From contig JBHOQL010000107.1 in NCBI GenBank assembly GCA_042408195.1, positions 31,976 through 95,975 of the forward strand: a stretch of 64,000 nucleotides of DNA, read 5' to 3'. The position numbers were made by a program, and so were the translations under genes. Each line of letters opens with the position of its first letter. Position 1 is the first letter of the stretch. Below, in pieces: positions 12,736 through 61,788 of this stretch. Under the pieces are notes generated by a model that saw nothing but the letters and a program-made list of their open reading frames with translations, made no database searches and was not told where the DNA came from. Source of the DNA: Anaerolineae bacterium (lineage in GTDB: Bacteria; Chloroflexota; Anaerolineae; SpSt-600).

Positions 12736-12862
12736 CTGATTTTGACGGAAGCTGCATTCCGTGGTAGAGGTTTTCCAGAAAGCAAAACAAGTATTTCAGG
12801 CAGATGAAGCTCAGCATGCTCTCAAAACGATGGCGACAAAATCTGTATTAGCGAGGTGTAAG

Positions 12863-16438: not shown

Positions 16439-16449
16439 GGAGGAGAACC

Positions 16450-24278: not shown

Positions 24279-24508
24279 AGCCTCTACCTCCTTCAGAAGG
24301 TTCTCTCAAAGAAATTCTCGGCCAGATGCACACACTGGCACGCAGCCTCTAGAACTTTACACGCATATTCTTCTTCATTGTGAGGCCTGGAAACAAGCCC
24401 GTAGCTTGCTCCCCTTTTCAGTAGCCAATTGCGCACTGAACACGCTCCTTGCCTACCCCCTGTGCCGGAAACTAGTTTAAGCCCACTCCAGGTAACGCCA
24501 AGCTAATT

Positions 24509-25024
24509 TCAACCGGAAGTCAGCATCTTCTCCGAAAAGCATCCCTTGAACCCTTCCCGGGTCAGGGACCAGCCGGGTTTGGATGGTAGTCCTTCCCACC
24601 ACCAATAAAGGATACCCAGCGAATCTCTTCGGCGGACAAGCTTGGCCTCTTTTATGAACTGTCGTACCTCTTTAAGACGAGTTTCCAGAAAGCCCTCTAG
24701 GTCAGAAATTATAACAGTATGTTGGGAAAGGTCAAGATGCAGAGATGTTACATCGGAATTGAATTCTTCAACTGTGCGGGCCAGGATAGAAATCCTACCC
24801 TGGCCCGCCCTGTCCACTATCGGTTTATAGCCTACCTTTCCCCGCTCAATGGGATTGAGCGGCAATTCTCTGGTTATAAGGAGCAGGTCAATATCGCTTT
24901 CTTCCCTCGCTTTTCCCTTAGCCCAGGAACCGAAGAACGCTAATGCCATTGGGTTGTCTTCCAACCCTTCTTTCATCCTCTGGGTAAGCTCTACAGCGAG
25001 CTCATCGAAATTGACCTGCTCCAT
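24509..25024 (-). CDS. Pol-beta-superfamily nucleotidyltransferase domain protein
   Basis: The hG[GS]x9-13Dh[DE]h motif is present (FFGSWAKGKAREESDIDLLLI). The start lies only 10 nt after the acsA stop, so it is probably co-transcribed. Confidence 0.6.
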   Translation of the reverse strand: MEQVNFDELAVELTQRMKEGLEDNPMALAFFGSWAKGKAREESDIDLLLITRELPLNPIERGKVGYKPIVDRAGQGRISILARTVEEFNSDVTSLHLDLSQHTVIISDLEGFLETRLKEVRQFIKEAKLVRRRDSLGILYWWWEGLPSKPGWSLTREGFKGCFSEKMLTSG

Positions 25025-25034
25025 GCTTCCGCCT

Positions 25035-27551: not shown

Positions 27552-29333
27552 TTAGAACAGGCCTTTTATCTTCCCGGTCTCCAAGTCAATGTCCACATCC
27601 ATGAAGGCCGGGCGGCTGGGGAGACCGGGCATGGTGCGCATCTCGCCGCAGAGTGGATAGAGGAAACCAGCTCCCACCGAGGCCCTTATGTCACGGATGG
27701 GAAGCCGGAATCCCTTCGGTCGGCCTCTCAGGTTGGGGTCGTGGCTCAGGGAGTACTGGGTCTTGGCCATGCAGATGGGGAATTTATCGTAGCCAAGCTT
27801 GGTATAGAGGGCGATCTTGCGCTCGGCTTCCTGGCTGTAATCCACTCCATCGGCTCCGTAGACCTTAGTGGCGATGATTTCGATCTTGTCCTTGATGGGT
27901 ATATCCAGCGGGTAGAGGAAACGGAATTGGGAAGGTTTGTTGGCAGCAGCAATTACGGCTTCGGCGAGTTCGACTCCACCCTCGCCGCCCTTGGCCCAGA
28001 CTTCGGAGATGCAAGCGGCTTCAGCACCAAACTCTAGGGCCGCCTTCTTTATTAGCTCCAACTCAGCTTGGGTGTCAGTGGGGAAGCGGTTTATGGCCAC
28101 GACTGCGGGGACGCCGAAGAGTTTCACGATGTCAAGAGTGGCCTCCAGGTTGCTCAGCCCTTTCTCCACAAGCTCCAGGTTCTCCTCAGTGTAAGCGGGA
28201 TCGAGAGGTCTTCCAGGCACAACCCTGGGACCACCGCCGTGCATCTTCAGAGCCCTGACGCTGACCACCACCACTACGCAATTGGGGATAAGGCCAGAAA
28301 CGCGGCACTTGATGTTGAAGAACTTCTCCATGCCGCAGTCAGCGCCGAAGCCTGACTCGGTCACCACGTAGCCATCCTCGCCCACCAGTTTTAGGGCTAT
28401 GTAATCGGCCACGATGGAAGAGTTGCCATGGGCGATGTTGGCGAAGGGCCCGGTGTGGACAAAGGCCGCATTGCCTTGCAGGGTTTGCATTAGGTTGGGC
28501 ATCAGAGCATCCTTCAGGATTACCGTCATAGCTCCGGCGACCCCAAGATCTTCAGCCGTGACGGGGTTTCCCTTTTTATCCATGCCGATGACGATCCTGC
28601 CCAGGCGCTCTCTTAGGTCCTTGAGGCTCGTGGCGAGGGCAAGGATGGCCATGATCTCTGAAGCCACAGCGATGTCAAAGCTGGCCTCCCTGGGGCGACC
28701 ATCCTCCTCCGTGCCCAGGCCGATAATTATTTTGCGCAGAGCACGGTCGTTGACGTCAACTACTCGTGGCCAAGTGATGGTATAGGGGTCAATGTTCAGA
28801 CGCCTGAGGCCTATCTTGGCCAGCTGTTCATCGGAGAGGCGGTCTTCGTGCATTATACGGGCGTCTATGGCCGCCGCCAGGAGGTTATGGGCTATGGATA
28901 CAGCGTGGATATCACCAGTGAGGTGAAGGTTGAAATCCTCCATCGGAACAACCTGAGAATAGCCACCACCCGCCGCCCCTCCTTTAATGCTGAAGGTAGG
29001 CCCCATAGAAGGCTGGCGGATGCAAGTGAAAACTTTCTTGCCCAGATAATAGAGGGCTTGGCTAAGGCCTATAGTAGTTACGGTCTTGCCTTCGCCCAAG
29101 GGCGTGGGGTTTATGGCGGTAACGTCAATATACTTCCCGTTGGGCTTATCCTTAAAACGCTCAAGCACCTCTAAGTGGACCTTGGCCTTGTATTTACCGT
29201 ACAGTTCGATGTCATCCTCGGTGAGCCCGTACTCTTCGGCGACCTCTATAATTGGGCGCAGCTTAGCGGACTGGGAAATCACAATATCAGGGGGTACTGG
29301 CTCAACGCGTTTGACTAAGAGTTCCCGTGCCAT
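27552..29333 (-). CDS. fhs: formate--tetrahydrofolate ligase (formyl-THF synthetase)
   Basis: Full-length FTHFS family match: N-terminal [38 protein letters not shown]-loop region [15 protein letters not shown]; 593 aa. Confidence 0.9.
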
Positions 29334-29705
29334 GTTTACCTCCTCCTTGGGATTTTAAGTTTAACCGTAGCTTATAAAGCCCTAACGGGTATGGTCTTAC
29401 AAATGGATCTTGAACAGCTCCCACTCCGCCCTTTGTTACGCTTGCCAGCCTCCTTTTCTCCTTGCGCATAAGAGCCGATGTATCCGATGTACAGCGCTTT
29501 TCTCTTAATGTCCAGGAGCTAAAAGCCTGGTTGATTTCTTCAGCATTTGGCTATCTGAGCACGGATAAACTCAAGGATCGCTGGGTATAGTTTACAGTTG
29601 CTTGCTGAGCAGCAAAGCAAAGCCCATTTATGCCAACCAACTTCTCTGGCTTTTTCCGCAAGGCCGAGCTCTCGCTCTACCCGTCTGAACCAGTCAGAGG
29701 CCCAG

Positions 29706-30290
29706 TTAGGCATCGGACTTGCTCCGCCAGATCAATTTCCACGCCGAAGGTAAAGCAAGTGTTGCTATTACAAGTTTCACCAGATCACCCGGGATGAAGG
29801 GGTAAAGTCCCGCCACCAACACTCTTTCCATTCCTATAAACCGGGCCAGCCATGGAAGCCCGAAGACATAAATGATGATGTTCCCGATAAGCATTGCCAA
29901 AAAGTTGCTCCAGAACTTCCTGTCCCAATGGCGCTCGGCCAACCAGCCAGTTACGAAAGCAGCGGCCACAAAGCCGAACAGGTAACCTCCGGTAGGCCCG
30001 AAGAGGCGGTAAAGGTTGCTTGTCCCTCCAGCGAAAACTGGAAGGCCAGCAGCACCTTCGAGCAAATAGAGGAGCAAGGATAAGGCTCCCCGTTTGCTGC
30101 CTAGCAAGGCCCCTACCATAAGTACTGCCAAGGTCTGCCCCGTAATGGGAACCGGGGTGAAGGGAAGGGGTATAGCAATGCGAGCCGCCAGAGCTACAAA
30201 AGCACTACCTCCAAGGATAAGAGCTAAGTCGTAAAGAATCGCTATCTGCTTTCTGGCAATAGGAGGCCGCAGAGCTTCGGCTATGGTCAC
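29706..30290 (-). CDS. bioY: BioY-family biotin ECF transporter S component
   Basis: BioY signature (IPLPFTPVPITGQTLAVLMVGALLGSKRGAL…GLPVFAGG), 194 aa, about 6 TM. Confidence 0.8.
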   Translation of the reverse strand: MTIAEALRPPIARKQIAILYDLALILGGSAFVALAARIAIPLPFTPVPITGQTLAVLMVGALLGSKRGALSLLLYLLEGAAGLPVFAGGTSNLYRLFGPTGGYLFGFVAAAFVTGWLAERHWDRKFWSNFLAMLIGNIIIYVFGLPWLARFIGMERVLVAGLYPFIPGDLVKLVIATLALPSAWKLIWRSKSDA

Positions 30291-30301
30291 TGGAGTGCCT
30301 C

Positions 30302-31180
30302 CTACTTCATTTGTCTCTTTGCTGCTTCCAGCACGTTCTTGAGCAACATGGCATTAGTCATTGGGCCGGTTCCCCCAGGGACAGGGGTTATTGCTCCGGC
30401 CACTTCCTTCACTGACTCAAAGTCAACATCACCCACCATTTTACCATTAATAAAGTTAACGCCAAAATCCACCACTACAGCACCAGGCTTGACCATGTCG
30501 GCGGTAACGAGATTAGCTCGACCGACGGCTACGCATAGGATATCGGCTTCCCGGCAAATGGCTCCCAGATCCGGCGTGCGTGAATGGCATATAGTTACCG
30601 TGGCATCTTCTCTGAGGAGGAGCAAAGCCATCGGTTTGCCTACAATATTGGACCGGCCCACCACTACTGCCCTCTTGCCGCTTATCGTTATGCCATAGCG
30701 CTTGAGGAGTTCGAGACCACCAAGAGGGGTAGCGGGGACAAAGTAATCCATTACTCCAGGAGGACGCCCCACAGGAGCCACTTGGGCCAGCCTTCCAGCA
30801 TTAACTGGGTGCACCCCATCTACATCCTTGGCAGGGTCAAGGCTTTCTTTTATGAGAGCTTCGTCCCAGCCTTTGGGGAAAGGCTCCTGCAGGATTATGC
30901 CGTGGACAGTGGGATCGGCACTCAGTTCTTTTACCAGTTTTATCATCTCTTCCTGAGAAGCCGTCTCCGGGAGGACGTAGAGCTTAAAACCGAGGCCATT
31001 GCTCTCAAAGGTCTTTTTTATAGCATTGGCATAGCTGACAGAAGCAGGATCTTCTCCAGCCCTAACTACGGCTATGGTTGGGATTACGCCATAATTATCC
31101 TTGAAAGAAGCCACCTCTGCTGCTACTTCGGCCTGAATATCCTTAGCTATAGAGCGGCCGTCCAAGATCTGGGCAGGCAT
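30302..31180 (-). CDS. folD: bifunctional methylene-THF dehydrogenase / methenyl-THF cyclohydrolase
   Basis: FolD family: MPAQILDGRSIAKDIQAEV…; NAD(P)-binding VVVGRSNIVGKPMALLLL; 292 aa. Confidence 0.9.
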   Translation of the reverse strand: MPAQILDGRSIAKDIQAEVAAEVASFKDNYGVIPTIAVVRAGEDPASVSYANAIKKTFESNGLGFKLYVLPETASQEEMIKLVKELSADPTVHGIILQEPFPKGWDEALIKESLDPAKDVDGVHPVNAGRLAQVAPVGRPPGVMDYFVPATPLGGLELLKRYGITISGKRAVVVGRSNIVGKPMALLLLREDATVTICHSRTPDLGAICREADILCVAVGRANLVTADMVKPGAVVVDFGVNFINGKMVGDVDFESVKEVAGAITPVPGGTGPMTNAMLLKNVLEAAKRQMK

Positions 31181-31191
31181 TTAGCACCTCC

Positions 31192-31848
31192 TTAAAGTTT
31201 GCTCTTGACAAATTCATATACTTCTTCTTTCAATTGCGATTTGCCTTCCAACAGTTTATCGAGCCGGGTCTGGGCTTCTTTTTTGAAGTTCTCGTCTTTG
31301 AGCCAGCCCAAGTTTATGAGCACGTTGAGAGCAGCGCTACGCAGGCCTGCCTCTGCCATCACCACGGCTACGCCCGCATCGCTTACAGCATTTACATTGC
31401 CCTTTTCAGCCACCGGCCGGCAGAGGTCTATGACCTTGACACAAGCTTCCGCCACCCGCAGAGGGACTTCGGTGGCCTCTTTGAGAGCTTTATCCAATGC
31501 TTCTTCTCGGATCGCCCTCTGCTCCTCAGTGTCTCTCGGCATCTTCATTGCTTCCGATACTTTGGTGTAAGCAGCTATGTCCCCCTCCAGAAGATCTAAA
31601 AGCTCCCGACGCAGGGCTTCCGATTGCTCCAGGATTGCTTTTATCTCTCCTTCTACATCAGCATACTTCTTTTTGCCGATGGTGAGATTGCAGACCATGC
31701 TTACTAAGGCAGCCCCCATCGCCCCGGCAAGAGCAGCAACGCTTCCACCACCGGGAGCAGGGGCTGAGCTAGCAAGCTCATCCATAAATTGGGTTATGGA
31801 TTTTTCGGCCAGCATGGTAACCTCCGTTTTCCTTAAATAGACGGGCAC
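31192..31848 (-). CDS. fchA: formiminotransferase-cyclodeaminase C-domain family protein (methenyl-THF cyclohydrolase FchA-like)
   Basis: FTCD_C signature (APAPGGGSVAALAGAMGAALVSMV…). The true start may be the internal MLAEKS at about 31815. Confidence 0.75.
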   Translation of the reverse strand: MPVYLRKTEVTMLAEKSITQFMDELASSAPAPGGGSVAALAGAMGAALVSMVCNLTIGKKKYADVEGEIKAILEQSEALRRELLDLLEGDIAAYTKVSEAMKMPRDTEEQRAIREEALDKALKEATEVPLRVAEACVKVIDLCRPVAEKGNVNAVSDAGVAVVMAEAGLRSAALNVLINLGWLKDENFKKEAQTRLDKLLEGKSQLKEEVYEFVKSKL

Positions 31849-32039
31849 CCCTTAGAGGCCTGCAGCTTCGAAACCAGGCCCCAGAGCGTTGAATTCTTCC
31901 CCTCATGTAGACATGCGGCTCCAGTCCTGGAACACTGACAATTTTTCAGCAAGGAAAAAGGGCCCTTTCCCTTTTCGCTCCTTCATAAATCCACACGCTG
32001 GTGACTGGCTTAACCTCTTCATTTCCTTGCTACGCTATA

Positions 32040-33422
32040 TCAGGCTGCCACTACCTTGAGGACTGGACTCACATCTACAAAGTGTTTCTGGAAACCAAGC
32101 TCAACTGGCTTTACTCCGAAGGCCAAGCCCAAAAGCTGAGTTATGTAAATCACTGGCATGCGGTAATCAAGCCCCAGCAGGTCCTGACGGGTGTCCAGAT
32201 TTATCTGACACAGCGGGCAAGCTACCACGATAGCGTTAGCCCCTACATTGTGGGCATCTTCAAGGATGCGACGGATCATGTCCAACACCGCTTCAGTCTT
32301 GCTCAGAGCAATGGAACCACCACAGCAATAGGTCTTGTAAGACCAATCCAAGCTCCGAGCTCCTGTGATTTCCACTAGCCTGTCCATTATCATTGGGTAT
32401 TCATAATGAGGCGCTTGCACAATTTTAGGCGGCCGCGTGATAAGGCAGCCGTAGTAGTTTACAACTTTGAGGCCGCTTAGGGGATGGGTAACTTTCTGGG
32501 CTATTTTGTCCATCCCAACATTTTCAAGGGCTTCAAGTAGATGCAGTATCTGTATGCCTCCCTTGTATTTGTACCCCGTTTGCTCTTCAACCGCTTTGGC
32601 CAGCTCTTTGTTCCGCTGAACATCGTAAACGGCGGCCTTGAAGCGGGAATAGCAGGCAGAGCAAGGCATCATAACCTTGTTGAGGCCTGCTTTTTCAAAT
32701 ATGGACATGTTCTGCATGGGCAAAGCAGCCGCAAGGACGTGATCGGTAGAGTGAGCGGGGGAAGTACCACAACAGACCCAGCCCTCGGGCTCGTAAAGGG
32801 ACACACCCAAATGCTGGAACACAGCCCTTACGGACATGTCATATTCGGACGAGGTGGAATGGAGAGAACAACCAGGGTAATATCCCAATACACCTTCTGG
32901 TGCTTTGCCCTCAGGCTTGCCGGAACGAGCGGGAAGAAGCCGGAGCTTGCCTTTGAGGAACATCTTTATACCCATCGGGACATCCCGCCGCAGGACGCCT
33001 CTGAAATCCAAACTCCTGCTAAGGAGCATGCGGAGATACATCTCCACCATCATCCCCAGCTCATACATCCTGCCGAAAATACGTATATTGTTCACCCCCG
33101 CCTTGGCAAAGGCGTAAACCTCCGGCAGCGGCGAAGGAATGCCCCGCTTCTGAGCCTCCACTTTGACTACATCCATTATGCGGGCGATGTCCAAGTCCTG
33201 AGGGCAGCGAGTGCTGCAGGTGTAACAAGTGGCGCAGAGCCATGCCGTGCGGGAACGCAGAACTACATCATCGCGCCCAAACTGAAGGTATCGCATGAGC
33301 TGGTGGGGGGTAAGGTCAAACTTATCGGCCAGAGGACAGCCATTTGTGCACTTCTTGCATTGGTAGCAAAGGTAAACGTTAGTGCCGAGTTCCTTGTTGA
33401 TCAGTCGTGCCAGTTCTCCCAT
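32040..33422 (-). CDS. heterodisulfide-reductase-like Fe-S oxidoreductase, fused HdrC-like (2x[4Fe-4S]) + HdrB-like (two CCG domains)
   Basis: Two ferredoxin motifs (CYQCKKCTNGCP, CATCYTCSTRCP) are followed by two CCG domains (…WVCCGTSPAHS…, …YCCGGSIALS…). Confidence 0.75.
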   Translation of the reverse strand: MGELARLINKELGTNVYLCYQCKKCTNGCPLADKFDLTPHQLMRYLQFGRDDVVLRSRTAWLCATCYTCSTRCPQDLDIARIMDVVKVEAQKRGIPSPLPEVYAFAKAGVNNIRIFGRMYELGMMVEMYLRMLLSRSLDFRGVLRRDVPMGIKMFLKGKLRLLPARSGKPEGKAPEGVLGYYPGCSLHSTSSEYDMSVRAVFQHLGVSLYEPEGWVCCGTSPAHSTDHVLAAALPMQNMSIFEKAGLNKVMMPCSACYSRFKAAVYDVQRNKELAKAVEEQTGYKYKGGIQILHLLEALENVGMDKIAQKVTHPLSGLKVVNYYGCLITRPPKIVQAPHYEYPMIMDRLVEITGARSLDWSYKTYCCGGSIALSKTEAVLDMIRRILEDAHNVGANAIVVACPLCQINLDTRQDLLGLDYRMPVIYITQLLGLAFGVKPVELGFQKHFVDVSPVLKVVAA

Positions 33423-33606
33423 TGTAGAGCCTCCTTATGGGATGTTGAACGGGGAATGGCGAAATGGTTATTTGTCCCCCGACTTTTTAACTTGGTAAAA
33501 CGGCAACGCCAACCCTCAGTGGTCACCTCTTTATCTCTGTAAGAGGCTATTTATCCCATTCCTCGTAACTTATATTCACCATCCGCCATGCCTCGTCCGC
33601 TATTCC

Positions 33607-34542
33607 TTAAATTTGCGGCCTGGGAAGGAGACCGGCCATCTCTGCAATCTGCGGCACGGCTTCTTCCCATTCTATAGCCATTATGTGGACCCCAGCCACA
33701 CCCGGGATTTCCTTTATCTGCTGGATTATTTCCACGCAGATTTTTATTCCCTCTTCTTTTTGTTGTTCCTTGGGAGTCTTGCGCATCCTTTCCACAATTT
33801 CTTCGGGGACATCCATTCCCGGCACTTTCGTAGCCATGTACTTAGCTGCGCCATAGCTCTTTATGGGCCCAACGCCAGCCAAAATGTAAACTTGCTTGTC
33901 AAGACCAAGGTCCCTCACTCGGCTCATAAAGTGGGCAAACTTTGGAACATTGTAAATGAGCTGGGTCTGAATGAAGCGAGCTCCAGCTTTGACCTTTTTG
34001 GCTAATCGGTAAGGACGGAAATCGAAAGGATCAGCGAAAGGATTCTCCGCTGCCCCCACGAAGAAGCGAACCGGCCCCCCTTCAATCTCCTCACCATTGG
34101 CAAATACACCTTCTTCCCCCATCCTGTGAACGATCTGAAGGAGCTGGATGGAATCTAGGTCAAAAACCCCTTTGGCCTCGGGGTGGTTACCGAAGCTCTG
34201 GTGATCGCCGGTGAGGGCGAGGAGGTTGCGGACGCCAAGAGCATAGGCTCCCAGAAGGTCGCTCTGAATGGCAATGCGGTTGCGATCCCGACAGGTCATT
34301 TGCATTACTGGCTCTATACCGAGCTCCAGCAATATCTTGGCCACGGCCATAGAGCACATTCGCACCACCGCCGTCTGGCAATCGGTGATATTGACGGCAT
34401 CTACGATACCCTTGAGGTGCTGGGCTTTGTGCTCAATAACGGAGCGTTCGGCTCCCTTGGGTGGACCCAGCTCACCTGTAACCGCAAAATAGCCTTTGGT
34501 CAATATCTTCTCAAGCCGACTAACAGGCTCACGCTCGCTCAT
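33607..34542 (-). CDS. metF: 5,10-methylene-THF reductase
   Basis: MTHFR family match across 311 aa (…YFAVTGELGPPKGAE…TDCQTAVVRMCS…). Confidence 0.85.
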   Translation of the reverse strand: MSEREPVSRLEKILTKGYFAVTGELGPPKGAERSVIEHKAQHLKGIVDAVNITDCQTAVVRMCSMAVAKILLELGIEPVMQMTCRDRNRIAIQSDLLGAYALGVRNLLALTGDHQSFGNHPEAKGVFDLDSIQLLQIVHRMGEEGVFANGEEIEGGPVRFFVGAAENPFADPFDFRPYRLAKKVKAGARFIQTQLIYNVPKFAHFMSRVRDLGLDKQVYILAGVGPIKSYGAAKYMATKVPGMDVPEEIVERMRKTPKEQQKEEGIKICVEIIQQIKEIPGVAGVHIMAIEWEEAVPQIAEMAGLLPRPQI

Positions 34543-34659
34543 CTTGTTTGCTCCTCCTTAAAAGCTTCGAGGATAACGTAGCCATATCCACAGGGGAAGC
34601 CCAAACATCTCCTCAGCTTTCTCCCAAGGCTTCCCGTAACCTTTTCGAGGCCCATCAAG

Positions 34660-35343
34660 CTATACCTCCATAAATTCCAGCCTTTCCTCTTCTCTGATGA
34701 TTTTTCTCGGACCGCCGCCACCAGCAGGACGCCAATCCTTGGGTCCTCTGATTTCCATCAGGGCATCAAGCCTACCCATGGCTCTGAGTTTCTCGTAAAT
34801 AAGTTGCCAGGCACAATCAATATCGGGATTGACTTCGCACTTGCCGTTCTGAGAACCACCGCACGGTCCATTGAGGAGGTTCTTGGAACAGCGTGCAATG
34901 GGGCAAATAGCGCCGGTAAAAGCAAGGACGCAATCCCCACACCCGGCACACCGCTCCACGAAAACTCCAGCCTCCGTAGGCATTCCCATCATGACCGTGT
35001 TGAGGGCCGGCAAGATAATTTTATCAGGGTAGCGCTCAGCCATTGCCTGAACACCAACCCCACAAGCCATGGAGAGCACAGCATCTACCCCGCGCACCAT
35101 CTCCCCAATGGGGTCTATGAATTCCCACTCACATTGCCTTTGCACGGTATACTCCACTGTTTCCAAAGGCTTACCTTCAAGCTGGCGGGCCATCCTCAAT
35201 TCCGCAGCCAGTATACCCACCTGTTTTTCTCCTCCCGAGAAATCCACCGTAACGCAGGTGCCGCACCCCAGGATCAGAATGCGGTTGAAGGGGGCTACCA
35301 TCGTTTTGATCTCCTCGAATGGTTTCCGGTTGGCGATTATCAT
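34660..35343 (-). CDS. metV: MetV-like methylene-THF reductase-associated zinc-ribbon/Fe-S protein (MTHFR C-terminal-domain family)
   Basis: Cys-rich protein (CGTC…, CAGCGDCVLAFTGAICPIARCSKNLLNGPCGG…) adjacent to metF, as in acetogen metVF pairs. Confidence 0.7.
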   Translation of the reverse strand: MIIANRKPFEEIKTMVAPFNRILILGCGTCVTVDFSGGEKQVGILAAELRMARQLEGKPLETVEYTVQRQCEWEFIDPIGEMVRGVDAVLSMACGVGVQAMAERYPDKIILPALNTVMMGMPTEAGVFVERCAGCGDCVLAFTGAICPIARCSKNLLNGPCGGSQNGKCEVNPDIDCAWQLIYEKLRAMGRLDALMEIRGPKDWRPAGGGGPRKIIREEERLEFMEV

Positions 35344-35795
35344 TTCTTGGCCTCCTTTCGCAACGGATTAGGGCCGAGGCTCCTTATCTTTTCCGTCATC
35401 TCGGCCACTACTTCGGCAAAGCGAGCTCCTTCAGCTGAAGACATATAATAAATGTTTAAGCGCTCTCCGTCAAGACCTATTTCCTCTAAAAGTTTCTTAG
35501 CGTACTGAACTCTTTTCGTGGCCTTTACATTCCCATCCTTAAAATGACAGTCTCCTATCCTGCACCCAGCGACTATCACTCCATCGGCCCCCTTTTCAAA
35601 GGCCGTAAGGATGTGGTGGACGTCAATCCTGCCGGTGCAGGGGATCTTCACAATTCGGATAGAGTCAGGATACTGTAGACGCATCACCCCTGCCAGGTCG
35701 GCAGCTCCATAAGCGCAGTAATGGCAAGCAAAAGTCACGATAATCGGCTTAAAGTCCTGCATAGTCTCTGCCTCCATATCACACCCATGCCGCAA
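35340..35795 (-). CDS. mvhD: MvhD/FlpD-like hydrogenase delta-subunit-type [2Fe-2S] electron-transfer protein
   Basis: MvhD signature (IVTFACHYCAYGAADLAG… IRIVKIPCTGRIDVHHILTAFEKGADGVIVAGCRIGDCHF). Confidence 0.8.
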   Translation of the reverse strand: MRHGCDMEAETMQDFKPIIVTFACHYCAYGAADLAGVMRLQYPDSIRIVKIPCTGRIDVHHILTAFEKGADGVIVAGCRIGDCHFKDGNVKATKRVQYAKKLLEEIGLDGERLNIYYMSSAEGARFAEVVAEMTEKIRSLGPNPLRKEAKK

Positions 35796-38700
35796 ACAGA
35801 GCCTCTACTTTCGCTTCAATCTGGTCATCCCGGTAATGCAACAGTTGTATCGCCTTGGCTGGACATTCGGCAACACAGACGCCACAGCCGTGGCACTGAA
35901 CGGGTTCAATATAGGCTGCCCCCTTTATTCCCCCAACTCCTATGAGTGTCGGGTCAATCTTGGGGACACTGTAAGGGCAAACACGTACACAAGTGAGGCA
36001 GGCTGTGCATTTTTCCGGGCTGACTACCGCCACGACTCCACCAACTTTCAGGGCATTTTGAGCCAAGATCGTGGCAGCACGGGCGGCGGCGGCTTTGGCT
36101 TGGGCTATTGTTTCATCCAGATGTTTAGGCCAGTGAGCCACCCCTGCCATGAAAATCCCATCCGAAGCAAAATCCACAGGGCGGAGTTTTATATGGGCCT
36201 CCCAGAAGAAGCCCTCCGGCATGAGTGGAACCTTGAGGATTTTGCCCAGCTCTTCGGCTCCCTCCGAGGGCACAATCCCCACGCTCAGGACTAAAAGATC
36301 AGCCCTCAGTTCCGTTTCCTCCCCGATCTCCGCATCCCTCACGCGCACCCTTAAGGTTCCATCTCCATCTGGTTCCACTTGAGGCCTTGAATCTCCATCG
36401 TAACGGATGAAAATGACCCCCCTTTCACGGGCCTTAGTATAGTACCGCTCTCTGAGCCCGTAAACCCTTATATCTCTGTGGAGAATGTAGACAGGTAAAT
36501 CGGGCCAAAGCTCTTTCAGCTTGAGGGCATTCTTGAGAGCCTGGGTGCAGCATACACCTGAACAGTACTTATCAGCTAGATCATCAGCGCACTGGATCAT
36601 CACCACAGGCCCGTAAGGGGCTTCACCCCGGGCGAGCTTTTCCTCCAGTTCCCGCTGGGTGTAAACTGCAGGATGCAGCCCATATAGGTAAAAGGCAGGT
36701 TTGTTCTCTTTTCCGCCCGTGGCCACGATGGTCACTCCGTGCTCGATGGAAAAACGCTGCCCATCGGGACCTTCCAACAGGGCAAAGAAGTTCCCGACAA
36801 ACCCCGAATGCTCTACAACCTTGGTATTCAAGTGAATGGTTATAAGGGGATTGGAGGTTACTTCAGCCACAAGTTTTTGGAGGAAAGCTTGCGGATCATC
36901 GCCTTCAAGGGTGTAATGGATGTGCCGGAGGTTGCCACCCAGCACATTCTCCCTCTCCACCAGGTGGACAGAAAACCCCTGCCGGGCGAGGGAGAGAGCA
37001 GTCGTCATCCCAGCCACACCTCCACCTATGACCAGGGCCGATTTGCGGACCGGAACATCTATAGTGTGGAGGGGCTCAAGACGGGCAGCCCTCGCCACAG
37101 ACATCCTTAGCAGGTCTTTGGCTTTCTCAGTGGCCTCCTTCCAGTTGCGGGAATGGACCCAGGAACACTGGTCCCGGATGTTGGCCATCTCAAATAGGAA
37201 GGGGTTTAGACCTGCCTGGCGGATAGTGTCCTGGAAGAGGGGCTCATGGGTGCGAGGAGTGCACGCGGCCACGACTATCCGGTTCAGGTTATGCTCCTTA
37301 ATAGCCTGTTTGATGAGCTCCTGAGTATCCTGCGAGCAAGTGTATAGGTTGTGGGTAGCATATACCACCCCCGGCAGAGAGCGAGCGTATTCAGTTACAG
37401 CTTCCACATCTAAATAGCCTGCAATGTTGGAACCACAGTGGCATACAAATACTCCGATGCGGGGCTCCTGGCCGCTTACGTCGATCTCAGGGGGATAGAC
37501 CGGGACTGTCACCTCTGTACCCCTGGCTGAAGCCAGCAACTCACCAATAGCTCCCGCAGCAGCGCTACCTTCTACAACCGAAGAGGGAATGTCCTTAGGG
37601 GCTGAGAACACCCCTGAAACGAAAACTCCTTCCCTCCCGGTTCCGAGGGGGTCGAAGAGGGAATTTTCCACAAAACCAAATTCGTTAACCTTAATGCCCA
37701 GCCTCTGGGCCAGCTCCCTCAAATCTTCCGGTATCTCCATCCCCACCGAGAGCACCACAAGGTCAAAGCGCTCTTCTTTGAACTGGCCGTTCTCCTGGTA
37801 GCGGACCAGGATGTCTCTTGTTTGAGGGTCTTCAAACAGGGCTGAAATGCGGCTGCGGGTGTAGACGATGCCGTATTCATCCTTGGCCCGGTTGAAATAA
37901 GCCATGTAGCCCTTGCCGAAAGCCCGCATATCCATCAGGAAAATCTGGCATAAAGTATCGGGCTCGTGCTCCTTGGCCATTATCGCCTGTTTGGTGGCAT
38001 ACATGCAACAGGCCGAGGAGCAGTAATCGCGCTCTTTATCCCTGGAGCCTATGCACTGGAGCCATGCTATGCGCTTAGCCTTCTTGCCATCGGATGGGCG
38101 AACAACGTGGCCTCCGGTAGGGCCAGAAGCGGAAAGGAGCCTTTCAAACTGGATTGAGGTCACCACGTTCGGGAAACGGCCGAAGCCGTATTCCTCCAAG
38201 GTGGAAGGGTCAAAGGGTTTATAGCCCGGAGCCAGAACTACAGCTCCCACTTCCAGCTTCAATGTCTGTTCCTTTTCCTCATGAGTCTCCTTCGTAACAG
38301 CCTGGGCTTGGCACACATATACGCACTGCAGGCACTCGGAACAGATCCCGCATTGGAGACAACGCTCAGCTTCGGCCCGGGCCTGCTCTTCGCTCAAAGG
38401 CAAGACTATTTCCCTAAAGGTGGTCTTGCGCTCATCGAGGGGGATAAGTTCAGGCTCCGCCCTTGGGACAGGTTTAAATTTGCCCTCTTCCACCAGTTTA
38501 AGGGCTTGTTCCTTTGTCCATCTGGCTACCTTCCAAGACTTCCCCTCTTCCTTAAGGGGCAACCCTTGGAGGTAACGGTCTATCATCCGGGCAGCCTTGT
38601 GACCCAGGGCCACTGCATGGATTATAAAGTTAGTCCCGGGCACTATCCCGCTACCGGCAAATATTCCGGGGATTTGGGTCTGAAGCGTTTCCAAGTCACC

Positions 38701-40206
38701 GTAAAGCTTATCGTAAGGCGGATCAAGGAAAGAAAGGTCTGATAGCTGCCCAACCGCCCTTATTACCGCATCCACTTCCAGAGTGAACTCTGTGCCAGGG
38801 ATGGGGACACGGCGCTCCTGACCTCCTTCGATTACGGTCTTCACCTTAGCACACTCTACCCCTGTGACTTTGCCATTTTGGCCTAGAATTCTGGTTACGG
38901 CTACCCCTTCCAGGAGCTCAACCCCTTCCCTTGCCACTTCTTCCAGTTCCCAGCGGTAAGCCGGGAGTTCTTCCCTGGTGCGCCGGTATATCAAATAAAC
39001 CTTTTCGCTTCCCAACCTTACCGAAACGGCAGCGGCATCTATGGCCGTTATTCCCCCACCGATAACGGCAACCCGCCGGCCAACTTTATGACGCCACCCG
39101 AGGTTTACTTCTCTCAGGAACTTCAGGGCTGGGATAACCCCTTCCAGATCCTCCCCTTCAATGTTCAAACGCCTGTCCCCGGCCACTCCAACAGCCAAGA
39201 AAACGGCGTCGTAACCTTCCTGAAGGAGCTTCTCAGGGTTGCGAACGGGGGTATTGAGGCGAAGTTCAACGCCCAGGGCGAGTATTTCGTCAATATCTCG
39301 CTGCAGTATAGCTTTAGGGAGACGATGTTCAGGTATACCAACACGCATCATCCCCCCGGCCACGGGCAAAGCCTCAAAAACGGTCACACCATAGCCCATG
39401 AGGACCAAATCTTTAGCAGCTGTGAGGCCAGCTGGCCCAGCACCCACAATGGCTATCTTCTGAGGCTTAGTCCGGGGAGCAGGCTTTGGAGGTTCATAAG
39501 GCCCATGGGTATAAACGTAATCCACCACGAAACGCTTCAGGGCCATAATGGCTATGGGTTCGTCTATATAGCGGCGGTTGCAGTGGCCTTCACAAGGGTG
39601 ATGGCAGGTGCGACCGCACACGCTGGGGAAAGGGTTATCTTCTTTAATAACTCGGAGAGCATCGTGGTAGCGGCCTTCCCGGATTAAAGCGATGTAACCC
39701 TGAGCCCTCTGTCCCGCAGGACAAGCATCCCTACAAGGGGCGACGCCCTCTTTCTCAACGGCGTAGGCATTAGGTACAGCCTGGGGGTACCGTTTGTAGA
39801 TAGCTTTGCGTTTCGATAGCCCTCCTTCATAGTCGTTGGGCAAAGAGATAGGGCAAACTCTGGTGCAATCGCCACAGGAGGTGCACTTGTTTTCATCTAC
39901 ATAACGGGGTTTGCGGCGAATGGTAGCTACAAAATGGCCTGGCTCCCCCTCCAGGTTAATAAGTTCAGCTCCGGTGATTATCTCTATATTGAGGTTTCGT
40001 TCCACTTCCACTAACCAGGGGGAAAGGATGCACATAGCGCAATCGTTGGTGGGGAAAGTCTTATCAAGCTGGGCCATCCTCCCCCCGATGGCGCTCTCTT
40101 TGTCCAAGAGGTAAACTTTAAATCCAGCAGCGGCCAAGTCCGAGGCTGCCCGAACTCCGGCTACGCCACCTCCTATTACTAGGACGGAACCTTTGACCTC
40201 AGGCAC
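35779..40206 (-). CDS. hdrA: giant HdrA-like flavoprotein (1475 aa): HdrA N-part with an inserted GltD/NfnB-like NAD(P)H-binding FAD domain, ferredoxin domains, and a second complete HdrA-like module
   Basis: Two FAD dinucleotide motifs of HdrA type (VLVIGGGVAGVRAA…, SALVIGGGVAGMTTA…). A GltD-type insert is present (CRDACPAGQRAQGYIALIREGRYHDALRVIKEDNPFPSVCGRTCHHPCE…KIAIVGAGPAGLTAAKDL). Several 4Fe-4S motifs (CLQCGICSECLQC…, CHGCGVCVAECP). One continuous ORF with no internal stop. Confidence 0.8.
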   Translation of the reverse strand: MPEVKGSVLVIGGGVAGVRAASDLAAAGFKVYLLDKESAIGGRMAQLDKTFPTNDCAMCILSPWLVEVERNLNIEIITGAELINLEGEPGHFVATIRRKPRYVDENKCTSCGDCTRVCPISLPNDYEGGLSKRKAIYKRYPQAVPNAYAVEKEGVAPCRDACPAGQRAQGYIALIREGRYHDALRVIKEDNPFPSVCGRTCHHPCEGHCNRRYIDEPIAIMALKRFVVDYVYTHGPYEPPKPAPRTKPQKIAIVGAGPAGLTAAKDLVLMGYGVTVFEALPVAGGMMRVGIPEHRLPKAILQRDIDEILALGVELRLNTPVRNPEKLLQEGYDAVFLAVGVAGDRRLNIEGEDLEGVIPALKFLREVNLGWRHKVGRRVAVIGGGITAIDAAAVSVRLGSEKVYLIYRRTREELPAYRWELEEVAREGVELLEGVAVTRILGQNGKVTGVECAKVKTVIEGGQERRVPIPGTEFTLEVDAVIRAVGQLSDLSFLDPPYDKLYGDLETLQTQIPGIFAGSGIVPGTNFIIHAVALGHKAARMIDRYLQGLPLKEEGKSWKVARWTKEQALKLVEEGKFKPVPRAEPELIPLDERKTTFREIVLPLSEEQARAEAERCLQCGICSECLQCVYVCQAQAVTKETHEEKEQTLKLEVGAVVLAPGYKPFDPSTLEEYGFGRFPNVVTSIQFERLLSASGPTGGHVVRPSDGKKAKRIAWLQCIGSRDKERDYCSSACCMYATKQAIMAKEHEPDTLCQIFLMDMRAFGKGYMAYFNRAKDEYGIVYTRSRISALFEDPQTRDILVRYQENGQFKEERFDLVVLSVGMEIPEDLRELAQRLGIKVNEFGFVENSLFDPLGTGREGVFVSGVFSAPKDIPSSVVEGSAAAGAIGELLASARGTEVTVPVYPPEIDVSGQEPRIGVFVCHCGSNIAGYLDVEAVTEYARSLPGVVYATHNLYTCSQDTQELIKQAIKEHNLNRIVVAACTPRTHEPLFQDTIRQAGLNPFLFEMANIRDQCSWVHSRNWKEATEKAKDLLRMSVARAARLEPLHTIDVPVRKSALVIGGGVAGMTTALSLARQGFSVHLVERENVLGGNLRHIHYTLEGDDPQAFLQKLVAEVTSNPLITIHLNTKVVEHSGFVGNFFALLEGPDGQRFSIEHGVTIVATGGKENKPAFYLYGLHPAVYTQRELEEKLARGEAPYGPVVMIQCADDLADKYCSGVCCTQALKNALKLKELWPDLPVYILHRDIRVYGLRERYYTKARERGVIFIRYDGDSRPQVEPDGDGTLRVRVRDAEIGEETELRADLLVLSVGIVPSEGAEELGKILKVPLMPEGFFWEAHIKLRPVDFASDGIFMAGVAHWPKHLDETIAQAKAAAARAATILAQNALKVGGVVAVVSPEKCTACLTCVRVCPYSVPKIDPTLIGVGGIKGAAYIEPVQCHGCGVCVAECPAKAIQLLHYRDDQIEAKVEALFAAWV

Positions 40207-40239
40207 CTTTGCCCCTCCGTATTTTAAACAGCGATCGGC

Positions 40240-40674
40240 TTATCTTTTATTACCTTCAGGCTTAAAGCCGTTCTTGATGGGATTGGGCCCTAATTTCTTA
40301 AGCCTTTCCACCATGGTGTTCACAGCGTTGGCGAAGGTTCCTCCCTGTCCACCGGACATGTAAAAGATTTCCAAGCGTTCTCCTCCAAGCCCGATTTCAT
40401 TCAGAAGTTTTTTAGCAAATTGAACTCGCCTTGCGGCCTGGATATTGCCGTGGACGTGATGGCAATTGCCGATAGGGCAAGCTACCACTATCACTCCATC
40501 GGCTCCCTTTTCAAAGGCTTCGAGGATGTAACGGACATCCAACTTTCCAGTGCAGGGGAAACGTATTAATTTTGTATTAGGGTGGTATTGAATGCGTAAA
40601 GCTCCCGCTGTATCCGCAGCCATATATCCACAGTATATACAGGTGAAAAGAGTAATTTCAGGCTGAAACTCCAT
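40240..40674 (-). CDS. mvhD: MvhD/FlpD-like protein, second copy
   Basis: MEFQPEITLFTCIYCGYMAADTAG…FPCTGKLDVRYILEAFEKGADGVIVVACPIGNCHH is a paralogue of the 35340-35795 gene. Confidence 0.8.
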   Translation of the reverse strand: MEFQPEITLFTCIYCGYMAADTAGALRIQYHPNTKLIRFPCTGKLDVRYILEAFEKGADGVIVVACPIGNCHHVHGNIQAARRVQFAKKLLNEIGLGGERLEIFYMSGGQGGTFANAVNTMVERLKKLGPNPIKNGFKPEGNKR

Positions 40675-40738
40675 GCTTTCGCCTCCCTCTCACATTAGGC
40701 TAATCCCTTCACCCCTTACCGTTCGCCATTCAAGACAC

Positions 40739-41761
40739 TCAAAAAGTAATAAGACTCCTTCTCAGTCTATCAAAGTCCTCCAATGCCTTCCCCGCTCCCA
40801 GGGCTACACAAGCCAGAGGATTATCAGCTACATAGCAGGGCACGCCTGTCTCTTTGGTCAACAATCGGTCCATGTTCCTGAGAAGTGCTCCCCCTCCTGT
40901 GAGAAGCATACCCCGGTCAATTATATCCGATGCCAGCTCAGGGGGAGCTTTCTCCAGCACTCTCTTGACCATCCCAATGATTGCTTTCAGCGGCTCAGAA
41001 ATAGCTTCGGTAACCTCATCGGAATTTATTACAACAGTTTTAGGCAAGCCTGTCACCAAGTCCCTGCCTTTGACTTCGGTCTGGAGTTTCTCTGGAAGGG
41101 GAAGCGCACTGCCTATTTCAATCTTCACTGCTTCGGCGGTCCCCTCGCCTATCTGCAGGTTATATTTCTTTCGGATGTAAGAGGCAAGGGCCTCATCAAT
41201 TTTCAGCCCACCCACCCTGACAGCATCAGCCACCACAATTTCATTCATTGAAATAATGGCCGCCTCACTTATTCCTCCGCCAATATCCACTACCATGTTC
41301 CCGGTAGGGGTGTGAATGGGCATACCAGCTCCCAAGGCAGCGGCCAGTGGTTCGGGGATTAAGTAAACCTCTTTACCTCCAGCCTGAATCCCAGCATCAT
41401 GGACGGCCCTCGTTTCCACACTAGTTATACCCACTGGCGCACTTATCATAACTCTGGGTTTAAAGAGACTGAAGCGACCACAAACCTTTTCCAGAAAATA
41501 ACGCAACATGGCTTCTGTCACGAGGTAATCGGCTATAACGCCGTCCTTAAGGGGCCGGACCACATCAATGCTTTCCGGGGTCCGCCCCTGCATGGTCATA
41601 GCTTCTTTGCCTATAGCCACGATTTTCTTGTCTTTTTTAGATATGGCTACAATGGACGGCTCCTGGATTACAATCCCCTTTCCCTTCACGTAGATTATAA
41701 TGTTGTAGGTGCCCAAGTCTATGCCAATTAACTTCTCAAACATTTTCCCCTTCCTTTTCAA
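40739..41761 (-). CDS. mreB: rod-shape-determining actin homologue MreB/Mbl
   Basis: [27 protein letters not shown]… matches MreB throughout. The likely real start is [12 protein letters not shown] at about 41743. The 5' end overlaps the atpC stop. Confidence 0.85.
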
Positions 41762-42185
41762 TCTGAGGAACCTGAAGGCAGCGGTAGCGCTGGGCGATCT
41801 TTATCCTGGTCATAGCCTTGCGGAGCCTCGCTTCAGCCTGAGCGAACTCCTCACGGCTGAGCCTGCCCCTTTCCTTGAGCAGCTCCATAGCCCTACGACG
41901 GGCTTCCTCCGCTCGGGCAATGTCAATCTCCTCAGCTCTCTCAGCGGTATCTGCCAGGACTATGACCCTATCCTTGTAAACCTGCATGAAGCCTCCGCCT
42001 ATGGCGAAAGAGAGCTCCTCTTCGCCTTTCCGTGCCTTTAGTTCCCCTATGCTCAAAGCTGTAAGTAGGGGGGCATGCTTGGGCAATATACCAAGTTGCC
42101 CGTCAACCCCCGGCGCTATTACTATATCCACCTCATCGGAAAAAACCATCCTCTCTCCAGTGACTATCTCCAAACGAAGGGGCAT
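41736..42185 (-). CDS. atpC: F1 ATP synthase epsilon subunit
   Basis: Epsilon family ([46 protein letters not shown]). Confidence 0.85.
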
Positions 42186-61716: not shown

Positions 61717-61788
61717 TGGGCGAGGAGGGTTTCGAACCCCCGACCTCGCGGATGTGAGCCGCGCGCTCTACCGCTGAGCTACTCGCCC
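61717..61788 (-). tRNA. tRNA-Val (anticodon CAC)
   Basis: The reverse complement folds as a cloverleaf: acceptor GGGCGAG/CUCGCCC, D-arm GCUC-AGCGGUAGA-GAGC, anticodon stem CGCGG/CCGCG with loop CUCACAU (anticodon CAC), T-arm GGGGG-UUCGAAA-CCCUC, discriminator A; CC is encoded after it. Confidence 0.85.

Follow-up and report, generated by a model that had tools for sequence, protein, structure and literature searches.

A probable Chloroflexi version of the Moorella-type Hdr-linked methylene-THF reductase in an Anaerolineae genome

The window, by which we mean the whole 64,000-nucleotide stretch of Anaerolineae DNA that was analysed, contains on its minus strand (32040-40674) six open reading frames within 8.6 kb, separated by intergenic gaps of -4 to 184 nt. 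The first-pass annotation had read their order as mvhD, giant hdrA, mvhD, metV, metF and fused hdrCB, and this order is confirmed, as the ORF coordinates and the Pfam assignments agree. The genes of the locus and of its surroundings are given below.

40240-40674, minus strand: mvhD1, 144 aa; Pfam FlpD (4e-43, full profile); predicted [2Fe-2S] electron-transfer subunit
35779-40206, minus strand: hdrA (HdrL/Moorella-type), 1475 aa, GTG start; assigned from Pfam, solved-structure mapping and motifs
35340-35795, minus strand: mvhD2, 151 aa as listed; Pfam FlpD (8e-52); adjoins hdrA downstream
34660-35343, minus strand: metV, 227 aa; Pfam DUF5981/MTHFR_C (6e-38); Cys-rich small subunit of acetogen-type MTHFR
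33607-34542, minus strand: metF, 311 aa; Pfam MTHFR (1e-43, full profile); predicted catalytic methylene-THF reductase subunit
32040-33422, minus strand: hdrCB fusion, 460 aa; Pfam Fer4_17 and two CCG domains
27552-31848, minus strand: methyl-branch block fchA-folD-bioY-fhs, downstream
31192-31848, minus strand: fchA; Pfam FTCD_C; methyl-branch gene
30302-31180, minus strand: folD; Pfam THF_DHG_CYH; methyl-branch gene
29706-30290, minus strand: bioY; Pfam BioY; sits among the methyl-branch genes
27552-29333, minus strand: fhs; Pfam FTHFS; methyl-branch gene
21993-27023, minus strand: carbonyl-branch block, CODH and acetyl-CoA synthase
25035-27023, minus strand: CODH; Pfam Prismane (2e-165)
21993-24278, minus strand: acetyl-CoA synthase; Pfam ACS_CODH_B_C and CdhC

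From the Pfam scan of adjacent ORFs, the hdrA-metVF locus stands in a Wood-Ljungdahl setting that comprises fchA, folD, fhs, CODH, ACS and RACo. The operon boundaries were drawn from gene spacing alone, because neither a search of 31000-42000 for promoters and terminators, in which the signal was no higher than the shuffled expectation, nor the Rfam scan, with a tRNA at 61717-61788 as its sole match, gave a signal there.

The largest product, HdrA, is made up of four segments.

39748-40206, minus strand: HdrA aa 1-153; start of the module 1 FAD-binding domain and first half of the inserted ferredoxin domain (C108-C118)
38344-39747, minus strand: HdrA aa 154-621; NfnB/GltD-like insert
37471-38343, minus strand: HdrA aa 622-912; second half of the inserted ferredoxin domain (C622-C632) and the remaining module 1 TrxR-like domain
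35782-37470, minus strand: HdrA aa 913-1475 (module 2); N-terminal Cys domain, TrxR-like domain and C-terminal 2x[4Fe-4S] ferredoxin domain

In module 1, aa 9-153 align to residues 147-291 of M. thermolithotrophicus HdrA (5ODC_A, 5e-49), with a GGGVAG motif at 12 and the NDCAMC motif (aa 54-59) that is the equivalent of Cys197. The alignment resumes after the insert, where aa 622-805 match 5ODC_A 293-475 (3e-52); here we find the [4Fe-4S] cysteines 718, 729, 733 and 734 and the pair E688/K739, which aligns directly to E356/K409 of M. thermolithotrophicus HdrA, the mark of a bifurcating flavin. In the insert itself, Pfam matched Fer4_20 at aa 155-234 (2e-18) and Pyr_redox_2 at aa 250-531 (1e-49), and in the PDB aa 155 to about 620 matched T. 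maritima NfnB best (4YLF_B, chain residues 45-461, 3e-82), besides P. furiosus NfnI (5JCA_L, 4e-73) and GltD (6S6S_G, 1e-49). With its Cys-rich N-terminal FeS region (C158, C162, C197, C201, C205 and C209) and its Rossmann motifs for FAD (GAGPAG at 255) and NAD(P)H (GGGITA at 383, with YRR at 407), the insert is assigned from motifs to the NfnB/GltD family. In module 2, aa 913-1085 align to 5ODC_A 2-174 (1e-61) and aa 1283-1471 to 467-650 (2e-38); between the two, 5ODC_A has about 95 aa more. Its motifs are CHCG at 922, GGGVAG at 1061, Cys 1206, 1215, 1219 and 1220, and E1188/K1225, a pair that was placed by motif and is invariant in 10 homologues.

Module 1 has neither the N-terminal Cys domain nor the C-terminal ferredoxin domain, and it carries the Cys197 motif and a ferredoxin domain split by the NfnB/GltD-like domain; in module 2 the Cys197 motif is missing, as is the inserted ferredoxin domain. 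FAD is predicted to bind at 12, 255 and 1061, and NAD(P)H at 383. The mapping on 5ODC_A, NfnB and GltD, together with Pfam, bears out the earlier description of a tandem HdrA in which an NAD(P)H:FAD domain is embedded, and the window HdrA is, as predicted from its domains, a single-chain asymmetric pseudo-heterodimer.

MetV contains 12 Cys, and the start of its gene overlaps the mvhD2 stop by 4 nt. MetF matches solved MTHFRs at 1e-15 at best and more weakly for the others; its gene adjoins metV on the same strand, the arrangement of the acetogen-type MetVF core. In the hdrCB product, aa 9-101 match the HdrC chains and aa 179-457 the HdrB chains (3e-44) of solved Hdr complexes. The HdrC part holds two CxxCxxCxxxC motifs, and the HdrB part two CCG motifs of the form CX31-39CCX34-36CXXC with the complete set of 10 Cys ligands (C185/C217 C218/C254/C257 and C326/C366 C367/C402/C405), so the fusion retains every ligand needed for two [4Fe-4S] clusters and two non-cubane ones. 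It is one uninterrupted ORF in 12 related loci.

We compared the locus with the MetFV-HdrABC-MvhD enzyme of Moorella thermoacetica (Moth_1191-1196; Mock et al. 2014, as described in PMC5861303 and PMC9430772). The HdrA of this enzyme (162.8 kDa, 1487 aa; Kremp et al. 2022, PMC9430772) has an N-terminal TrxR-like module in which a GltD/NfnB-type FAD/NAD(P)H domain splits the ferredoxin domain, a C-terminal module (aa 922-1487) without the inserted ferredoxin domain, and E/K bifurcation signatures at E696/K750 and E1204/K1246 (PMC9430772). By published residue numbers and domain order, the window HdrA differs little from it (1475 vs 1487 aa, second module from aa 913 vs 922). The description of the window HdrA as non-canonical is thus not upheld, since the same layout is published for the archetypal protein (PMC9430772). 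Both loci encode the same six protein functions in a Wood-Ljungdahl context, with hdrA, hdrB, hdrC and mvhD homologues clustered with metVF and mvhD-metV-metF directly 3' of hdrA. On the other hand, Moorella, of the Bacillota, has separate hdrC and hdrB genes upstream of hdrA, whereas the window, from the Chloroflexota, has one fused hdrCB downstream of metF and an extra mvhD upstream of hdrA. The Moorella order hdrC-hdrB-hdrA-mvhD-metV-metF, which the window does not follow, was found with the same HdrA in five other loci (L014, L029, L031, L044 and L056), and the difference in order is a feature of operon layout, not a functional one. From the sequence and by analogy with the Moorella enzyme, we consider it likely that the locus is the Chloroflexi version of the Moorella-type Hdr-linked methylene-THF reductase.

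The cluster as a whole had also been called non-canonical. This is correct insofar as the locus departs from Moorella in its order, its additional mvhD and its fused hdrCB, but all three features recur in Chloroflexota relatives and are typical of this lineage. The order mvhD-hdrA-mvhD-metV-metF-hdrCB is common to L001, L003, L005, L006, L011, L021, L069 and L081-L083. The shorter linkage hdrA-mvhD-metV-metF is kept in dozens of loci from the Chloroflexota, Desulfobacterota, Planctomycetota, Bacteroidota and Bacillota. Clusters of hdrABC-mvhD-metVF were described for the marine Anaerolineae DscP3, An-B22, SM23_63/83 and 4484-236 (Sewell et al. 2017, PMC5736913). These are Moorella-like clusters from the same class as the window, with hdrC translationally fused to hdrB; the cluster is regarded there as unique to marine subphylum I Chloroflexi, and the text of that paper does not discuss a second mvhD or a domain insert in HdrA.

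The two mvhD genes are 55% identical in product. Against solved MvhD chains, MvhD1 scores 2e-41 to 9e-31 and MvhD2 3e-46 to 1e-38. The true start of mvhD2 is likely 35762, as called in relatives, which would give 140 aa, and the gene lies 16 nt downstream of hdrA. All MvhD and HdrA proteins of the window use Cys, not selenocysteine. MvhD1 groups with the upstream MvhD of Chloroflexota relatives as orthologues (a clade of 11). It had been proposed that the duplication of HdrA and MvhD implies a pseudo-dimeric architecture. The HdrA part of this proposal holds, and the idea of a single-chain tandem-HdrA pseudo-dimer is already published (Chadwick et al. 2022, PMC9012536); the second mvhD, however, is not implied by the HdrA duplication, because Moorella has only one mvhD with the same tandem HdrA (PMC9430772).

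This count in Moorella also favours another explanation for the upstream gene, namely that mvhD1 is the leftover of a lost hdrA'-mvhD1 pair and not a subunit here, in which case there would be no two-MvhD architecture. We hold this to be a real but somewhat doubtful possibility. In Chloroflexota relatives the upstream mvhD usually comes after a GltD-less hdrA' of about 1000 aa, which several of them carry and the window lineage is without; in six loci (L002, L003, L006, L011, L021 and L069) the MvhD1 orthologue directly follows it, in keeping with the general rule that hdrA and hdrL genes each have an mvhD of their own behind them (PMC2702500). Nevertheless, mvhD1 is an intact gene whose product keeps the five conserved Cys without exception, its conservation relative to the L081 and L082 copies (88-92% identity) at least equals that of mvhD2 (85-88%), and just 33 nt separate it from hdrA, which follows on the same strand. 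It is therefore maintained by selection and probably co-transcribed. A hdrA' gene may also be sited elsewhere in the genome. As a separate candidate, MvhD1 was considered as a stand-in for the missing N-terminal domain of HdrA module 1, and this found no support, as it gave only a marginal local match to HdrA aa 913-1051 (E 0.06).

For the Moorella-type reductase that we prefer, an electron path can be proposed by analogy with the enzymes of Moorella and of methanogens. NAD(P)H would be oxidised at the GltD-like flavin, and electrons would pass through the FeS clusters of the insert and the split ferredoxin domain to an HdrA flavin with the E/K bifurcation signature. From there one path may lead through FeS relays (C-terminal ferredoxin domain, HdrCB and/or MvhD, MetV) to MetF, which would then reduce methylene-THF, and the other to a low-potential acceptor; the reaction may reverse when the pathway oxidises acetate. 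NAD(P)H entry through the built-in domain, as the first-pass annotation had suggested, seems reasonable by this analogy, but it is not new, as it is already part of the Moorella archetype. Moorella HdrA oxidises NADH, and the complex, with two FAD in HdrA, shows NADH:benzyl viologen activity and reduces methylene-THF with reduced benzyl viologen (PMC5861303, PMC9430772). The Moorella-type complex is not known to reduce methylene-THF with NADH alone.

Alternatively, HdrA-MvhD-HdrCB may be an independent NAD(P)H-dependent oxidoreductase beside a stand-alone ferredoxin-dependent MetVF, as in Clostridium ljungdahlii; it could then be an HdrL-type bifurcating NAD(P)H:ferredoxin or thiol/disulfide enzyme. 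The HdrA module is not tied to MTHFR, because in many relatives, among them Acidobacteriota and Syntrophales, an hdrA-mvhD pair of this architecture has no metVF beside it (class D loci). The original proposal for HdrL was a role in NADH-linked sulfite reduction (PMC2702500), the complete non-cubane ligand set in HdrB may suggest a thiol/disulfide substrate, and the MetVF of Sporomusa ovata does not co-purify tightly with Hdr subunits. Yet pull-downs in S. ovata show MetVF interacting with HdrA, HdrB and MvhD, the Moorella subunits were co-purified as one complex, as reviewed, and the adjacency hdrA-mvhD-metV-metF is conserved across five phyla, with the mvhD2/metV overlap in the window. We judge the independent enzyme decidedly unlikely. 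A methanogen-type CoM-S-S-CoB heterodisulfide reductase was also rejected, as the adjoining ORFs that were scanned encode ATP synthase, mreB and tetrahydrofolate/CODH/ACS functions and include no mvhA/G or mcr.

Colinear homologues and two independent assemblies effectively rule out that an assembly error or a frameshift created the 1475-aa ORF by fusing two hdrA genes and a gltD-like gene. In the protein database search, the best 120 homologue clusters were 1460-1593 aa long, mostly with 99-100% query coverage, and matches were colinear over aa ~4-1471 in 80 species-representative genomes of many phyla (best 80 loci listed, with Moorella, whose published HdrA is of similar length, not among them); these counts are lower bounds, at least 120 protein clusters and at least 80 species genomes. 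Among the matches listed, the nearest HdrA homologues are bacterial Chloroflexota. Assembly GCA_034431695.1 has a 91%-identical HdrA, also of 1475 aa, in the identical gene order, and the order in GCA_033580795.1 is the same.

Other known systems share parts of this architecture. HdrL of Desulfobacterium autotrophicum HRM2 is a large HdrA/GltD fusion with an NADH-binding site that is always followed by mvhD (Strittmatter et al. 2009, PMC2702500), and the window hdrA, with its GltD-like NAD(P)H domain and mvhD2 directly downstream, fits this definition. Unlike the window locus, HdrL1 is associated with dsr genes, and a role in sulfite reduction was suggested for it; several D. autotrophicum HdrL and MvhD proteins contain selenocysteine (PMC2702500). 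The S. ovata HdrA (101 kDa) has two TrxR-like modules, the C-terminal one without the inserted ferredoxin domain, and its gene is clustered with mvhD-metV-metF, as in the window (PMC9430772); lacking the GltD/NAD(P)H domain, it resembles the hdrA' product of Chloroflexota relatives and not the window HdrA. ANME-1 HdrA9-11 share the NfnB insertion, and the fused HdrA3/4 share the complementary loss of Cys197 and of the N-terminal domain, but the N-terminal domain belongs to the first module in HdrA3/4 and to the second in the window HdrA, and all these proteins come from archaea, where their genes do not cluster with metF (Chadwick et al. 2022, PMC9012536). Methanogen MvhADG-HdrABC (5ODC) and NfnAB (4YLF) provide structural templates for every window domain (HdrA 9e-199, HdrB 3e-44, HdrC 1e-13, MvhD 1e-31 to 1e-43, NfnB 3e-82). 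In contrast to these systems, the window has no hydrogenase, CoM-S-S-CoB context or NfnA partner, and one asymmetric chain takes the place of the homodimeric methanogen HdrA. The PDB search returned methanogen Hdr, Nfn/Stn-type proteins and ordinary MTHFRs as best matches and no MetFV-Hdr complex, and no cryo-EM structure of an MTHFR-Hdr complex was found in the literature searched.

By itself the locus is ordinary and adds no new kind of enzyme. HdrA/GltD fusions (HdrL, 2009), tandem-HdrA pseudo-dimers and Anaerolineae hdrC-hdrB fusions (2017) are all published. A more far-reaching reading, which we regard as rather improbable, combines the single-chain HdrA with two distinct MvhD proteins, MvhD1 being under purifying selection after the loss of hdrA', and with an NAD(P)H cassette exchangeable by recombination. 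If true, the asymmetric complex would gain a second [2Fe-2S] port that is absent from the Moorella enzyme, and replacing a domain could change the electron donor that the Wood-Ljungdahl methylene-THF reductase uses. The wider comparison shows the Moorella-type giant HdrA as the standard form across many phyla, and the Chloroflexota as carrying a consistent layout variant with the fused hdrCB after metF and the extra mvhD. The comparative set, which covers four synteny classes, Sec vs Cys MvhD, GltD-containing vs GltD-less HdrA paralogues and a swapped NAD(P)H cassette, could guide the choice of constructs for structural and biochemical work. The swap was seen in a sister genome, where the whole NAD(P)H-binding cassette, that is, the inserted ferredoxin domain and the GltD module, is exchanged.

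Six successive ORFs on the minus strand occupy positions 32040-40674 of the window. Together with two nearby genes on the opposite strand, they are as follows.

40240-40674, minus strand: mvhD1, the mvhD upstream of hdrA, 144 aa (Pfam FlpD, 4e-43)
35779-40206, minus strand: hdrA, 1475 aa
35340-35795, minus strand: mvhD2, the mvhD downstream of hdrA (Pfam FlpD, 8e-52)
34660-35343, minus strand: metV (Pfam DUF5981, 6e-38)
33607-34542, minus strand: metF (Pfam MTHFR, 1e-43)
32040-33422, minus strand: fused hdrCB, 460 aa (Pfam dicluster ferredoxin domain and two CCG domains)
10879-12735, strand opposite to the cluster: RACo
12761-14671, strand opposite to the cluster: aldehyde:ferredoxin oxidoreductase

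The six genes are spaced by -4 to 184 nt, and the cluster sits among Wood-Ljungdahl genes, with fchA, folD, bioY and fhs downstream, followed by those for CODH and acetyl-CoA synthase (ACS), while mreB and an F-type ATP synthase operon lie upstream.

The segments of HdrA were assigned by alignment to solved structures, with the HdrA chain of M. thermolithotrophicus (5ODC_A) as the reference for two HdrA units, module 1 (N-terminal) and module 2 (C-terminal). Residues 9-153 correspond to 5ODC_A 147-291, in which the thioredoxin-reductase-like FAD domain begins and the first cluster of the inserted ferredoxin domain is located. An NfnB/GltD-type segment follows at residues 155 to about 620 (T. 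maritima NfnB, 3e-82; P. furiosus NfnI, 4e-73; GltD, 1e-49), and the HdrA alignment resumes at residues 622-805 (5ODC_A 293-475). Residues 913-1085 match 5ODC_A 2-174, covering the N-terminal Cys domain and the opening part of another FAD domain, and residues 1283-1471 match 5ODC_A 467-650, including the C-terminal ferredoxin domain. From the motif map, FAD-type GxGxxG motifs are located at 12, 255 and 1061, and an NAD(P)H-type GGGITA at 383 is followed by YRR at 407. There are four CxxCxxCxxxC motifs, and the E/K pair that marks bifurcating HdrA flavins occurs in both modules (E688/K739 and E1188/K1225). Module 1 has the inserted ferredoxin domain and, as the only one of the two, NDCxxC with the Cys197 equivalent, and it is without the N- and C-terminal domains; module 2 has these terminal domains and is without Cys197 and the inserted ferredoxin domain. 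The modules thus complement each other in domain content. The tandem HdrA with an embedded NAD(P)H domain and the gene order reported in the first-pass annotation are both present.

The long ORF is not an artefact. The best 120 database homologues are 1460-1593 aa long, mostly with 99-100% coverage and 55-91% identity, and those with a named source come from Anaerolineae, Anaerolineales, Promineifilaceae and Thermoflexales MAGs. A genome scan found at least 597 HdrA-related stretches in species-representative genomes, the best 80 of which are all colinear over HdrA residues ~4-1471. These 80 are distributed over Chloroflexota, Desulfobacterota, Acidobacteriota, Bacillota (including the cultured Desulfotruncus arcticus DSM 17038), Aminicenantes, Planctomycetota, Nitrospinaceae, Spirochaetes and Gemmatimonadota. 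The order atp operon-mreB-mvhD-hdrA-mvhD-metV-metF-hdrCB-fchA-folD is also found in two related assemblies. The full-size homologues, the colinear loci and the syntenic assemblies all speak against a frameshift or misassembly having fused two hdrA genes. Two archaeal-binned contigs also appear among the best 80, in a Thermoplasmatota MAG (L073) and a Promethearchaeota MAG (L076); their HdrA is full-length and colinear with 47-49% identity and an adjacent mvhD, and reflects either cross-domain transfer or mis-binning.

When compared with the MetFV-HdrABC-MvhD methylene-THF reductase of Moorella thermoacetica, the window HdrA agrees point for point with the published residue numbers and domain order. 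The M. thermoacetica HdrA has 1487 aa (162.8 kDa) and is predicted to bind FAD at three sites and NAD(P)H at one, with E/K signatures at 696/750 and 1204/1246 (Kremp et al. 2022, PMC9430772). It has also been described as a fusion of two HdrAs, one of which has lost Cys197 and the other the N-terminal domain (Chadwick et al. 2022, PMC9012536). The latter study also reports NfnB insertions within the ferredoxin domain of ANME-1 HdrAs. HdrL was defined as a fusion of HdrA with glutamate synthase, with mvhD as the next gene (Strittmatter et al. 2009, PMC2702500), and in marine Anaerolineae Moorella-like hdr-mvhD-metVF clusters were reported in which hdrC and hdrB are translationally fused (Sewell et al. 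2017, PMC5736913). The features of HdrA that had been called non-canonical are therefore features of the archetype itself; the direct coupling to pyridine nucleotides suggested for them is likewise already documented, as NADH oxidation by the Moorella HdrA (PMC5861303, PMC9430772). The locus represents the known Hdr-type enzyme in a Chloroflexota version typical of the lineage; the first-pass observation is confirmed, and its interpretation is partly supported.

Placing the window proteins in 83 related loci by tblastn gave four recurring layouts.

Layout A (Chloroflexota type): an optional separate hdrA' of ~1000 aa, mvhD1, hdrA, mvhD2, metV, metF, fused hdrCB
Layout B (Moorella order): hdrC and hdrB as two genes ahead of hdrA-mvhD-metV-metF (L014, L029, L031, L044, L056)
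Layout C (Desulfobacterota type): hdrA-mvhD-metV-metF preceded by an additional metF-like gene
Layout D: hdrA-mvhD without metVF

Layout A is found in L001, L003, L005, L006, L011, L021, L069 and L081-L083, and apparently in L002. L001 carries a full-length second hdrA copy with its mvhD upstream, L072 follows the layout in its downstream part but has no upstream mvhD, and in L013 the fused hdrCB comes straight after hdrA-mvhD, without metVF. The window's fused hdrCB follows metF, whereas the separate hdrC and hdrB of Moorella precede hdrA. In 12 loci a single uninterrupted ORF encodes both HdrC and HdrB, downstream of hdrA every time; where hdrC and hdrB lie upstream of hdrA, they are separate genes (9/9 cases). 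Residues 9-101 of the window HdrCB match HdrC chains and residues 179-457 HdrB chains of solved structures; the protein has two CxxCxxCxxxC motifs, and the ten Cys of its two CCG motifs are all present.

Both window MvhDs align with MvhD chains of known structure, have all five of the conserved Cys and are 55% identical to each other. The first-pass annotation took the duplicated HdrA and MvhD together as a sign of a pseudo-dimeric single-chain architecture. The upstream MvhDs, including window mvhD1, form a single clade of 11, and in six loci of this clade (L002, L003, L006, L011, L021, L069) mvhD1 directly follows hdrA'. This hdrA' matches window HdrA residues 3-165 and 622-1475, and so corresponds to the tandem protein minus the GltD insert. 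Because the mvhD1 orthologues accompany hdrA' in relatives, the extra mvhD is best explained by history, each hdrA gene having its own mvhD, and not by the duplication inside HdrA. In the window (40675-41761), L081 and L082, mreB occupies the hdrA' position and mvhD1 stands there alone; no second hdrA was found within the 64-kb window. Among these three loci mvhD1 is 88-92% identical, a conservation at least that of mvhD2.

More than 40 related loci have an in-frame TGA that falls precisely on one of two conserved Cys positions in the hdrA-adjacent mvhD (for example L003:9788-10171, L011:13418-13792, L063:5100-5519, L083:5911-6309 and 12524-12940), and gene callers split these genes in two. 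They probably encode selenoproteins (Sec MvhDs), as known for D. autotrophicum. Both window MvhDs have Cys where relatives have TGA.

The cofactor-binding motifs and their order are seen in the sequence, and an electron path can be proposed by analogy with the Moorella and methanogen enzymes. NAD(P)H would reduce the GltD-like flavin, from which electrons would reach the module 1 flavin through the GltD FeS clusters and the split inserted ferredoxin domain. The N-terminal cluster would be shared in the pseudo-dimer via Cys59 of module 1 (the Cys197 equivalent). One electron would be relayed through the C-terminal ferredoxin domain, HdrCB, MvhD and MetV to MetF, and the other would pass to a second, low-potential acceptor. 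The reaction could run in the direction of acetogenesis or of acetate oxidation; syntrophic acetate oxidation has been proposed for Anaerolineae with the Wood-Ljungdahl pathway.

The cluster DNA is ~80-85% identical overall to that of L082, the sister genome GCA_033580795.1, except over 1.75 kb (window ~39930-38170, HdrA residues ~93-680, compared with L082:8001-12467), where the identity is 43-63%. At the protein level it is 32-66% over these residues and ~90% elsewhere. For the L082 insert the nearest relatives (~50%) are Aminicenantes and Desulfobacterota loci, for the window insert Anaerolineae loci (57-59%); the L081 cassette is of the window type. From the identity dip and these different nearest relatives it follows that the whole NAD(P)H cassette, comprising the inserted ferredoxin domain and the GltD/NfnB module, was replaced in one lineage.

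Several other features of the neighbourhood were observed. In relatives a HEPN/nucleotidyltransferase pair lies between hdrCB and fchA (L081:15965-16679, L082:16136-17459), an interval that is just a 191-nt gap in the window (31849-32039), and a nucleotidyltransferase-domain ORF is located between the window's CODH and ACS genes (24509-25024). Two long plus-strand ORFs, 15080-16438 and 15604-17877, share ~800 nt, and the PLP-dependent decarboxylase/aminotransferase domain of the 757-aa member is confined to its C-terminal half; a mis-called start or a frameshift may be responsible. Adjoining RACo and the aldehyde:ferredoxin oxidoreductase gene, a plus-strand ORF of 1363 aa (6393-10484) has a PMT-type glycosyltransferase domain and DUF2298, and thus encodes a large membrane protein.
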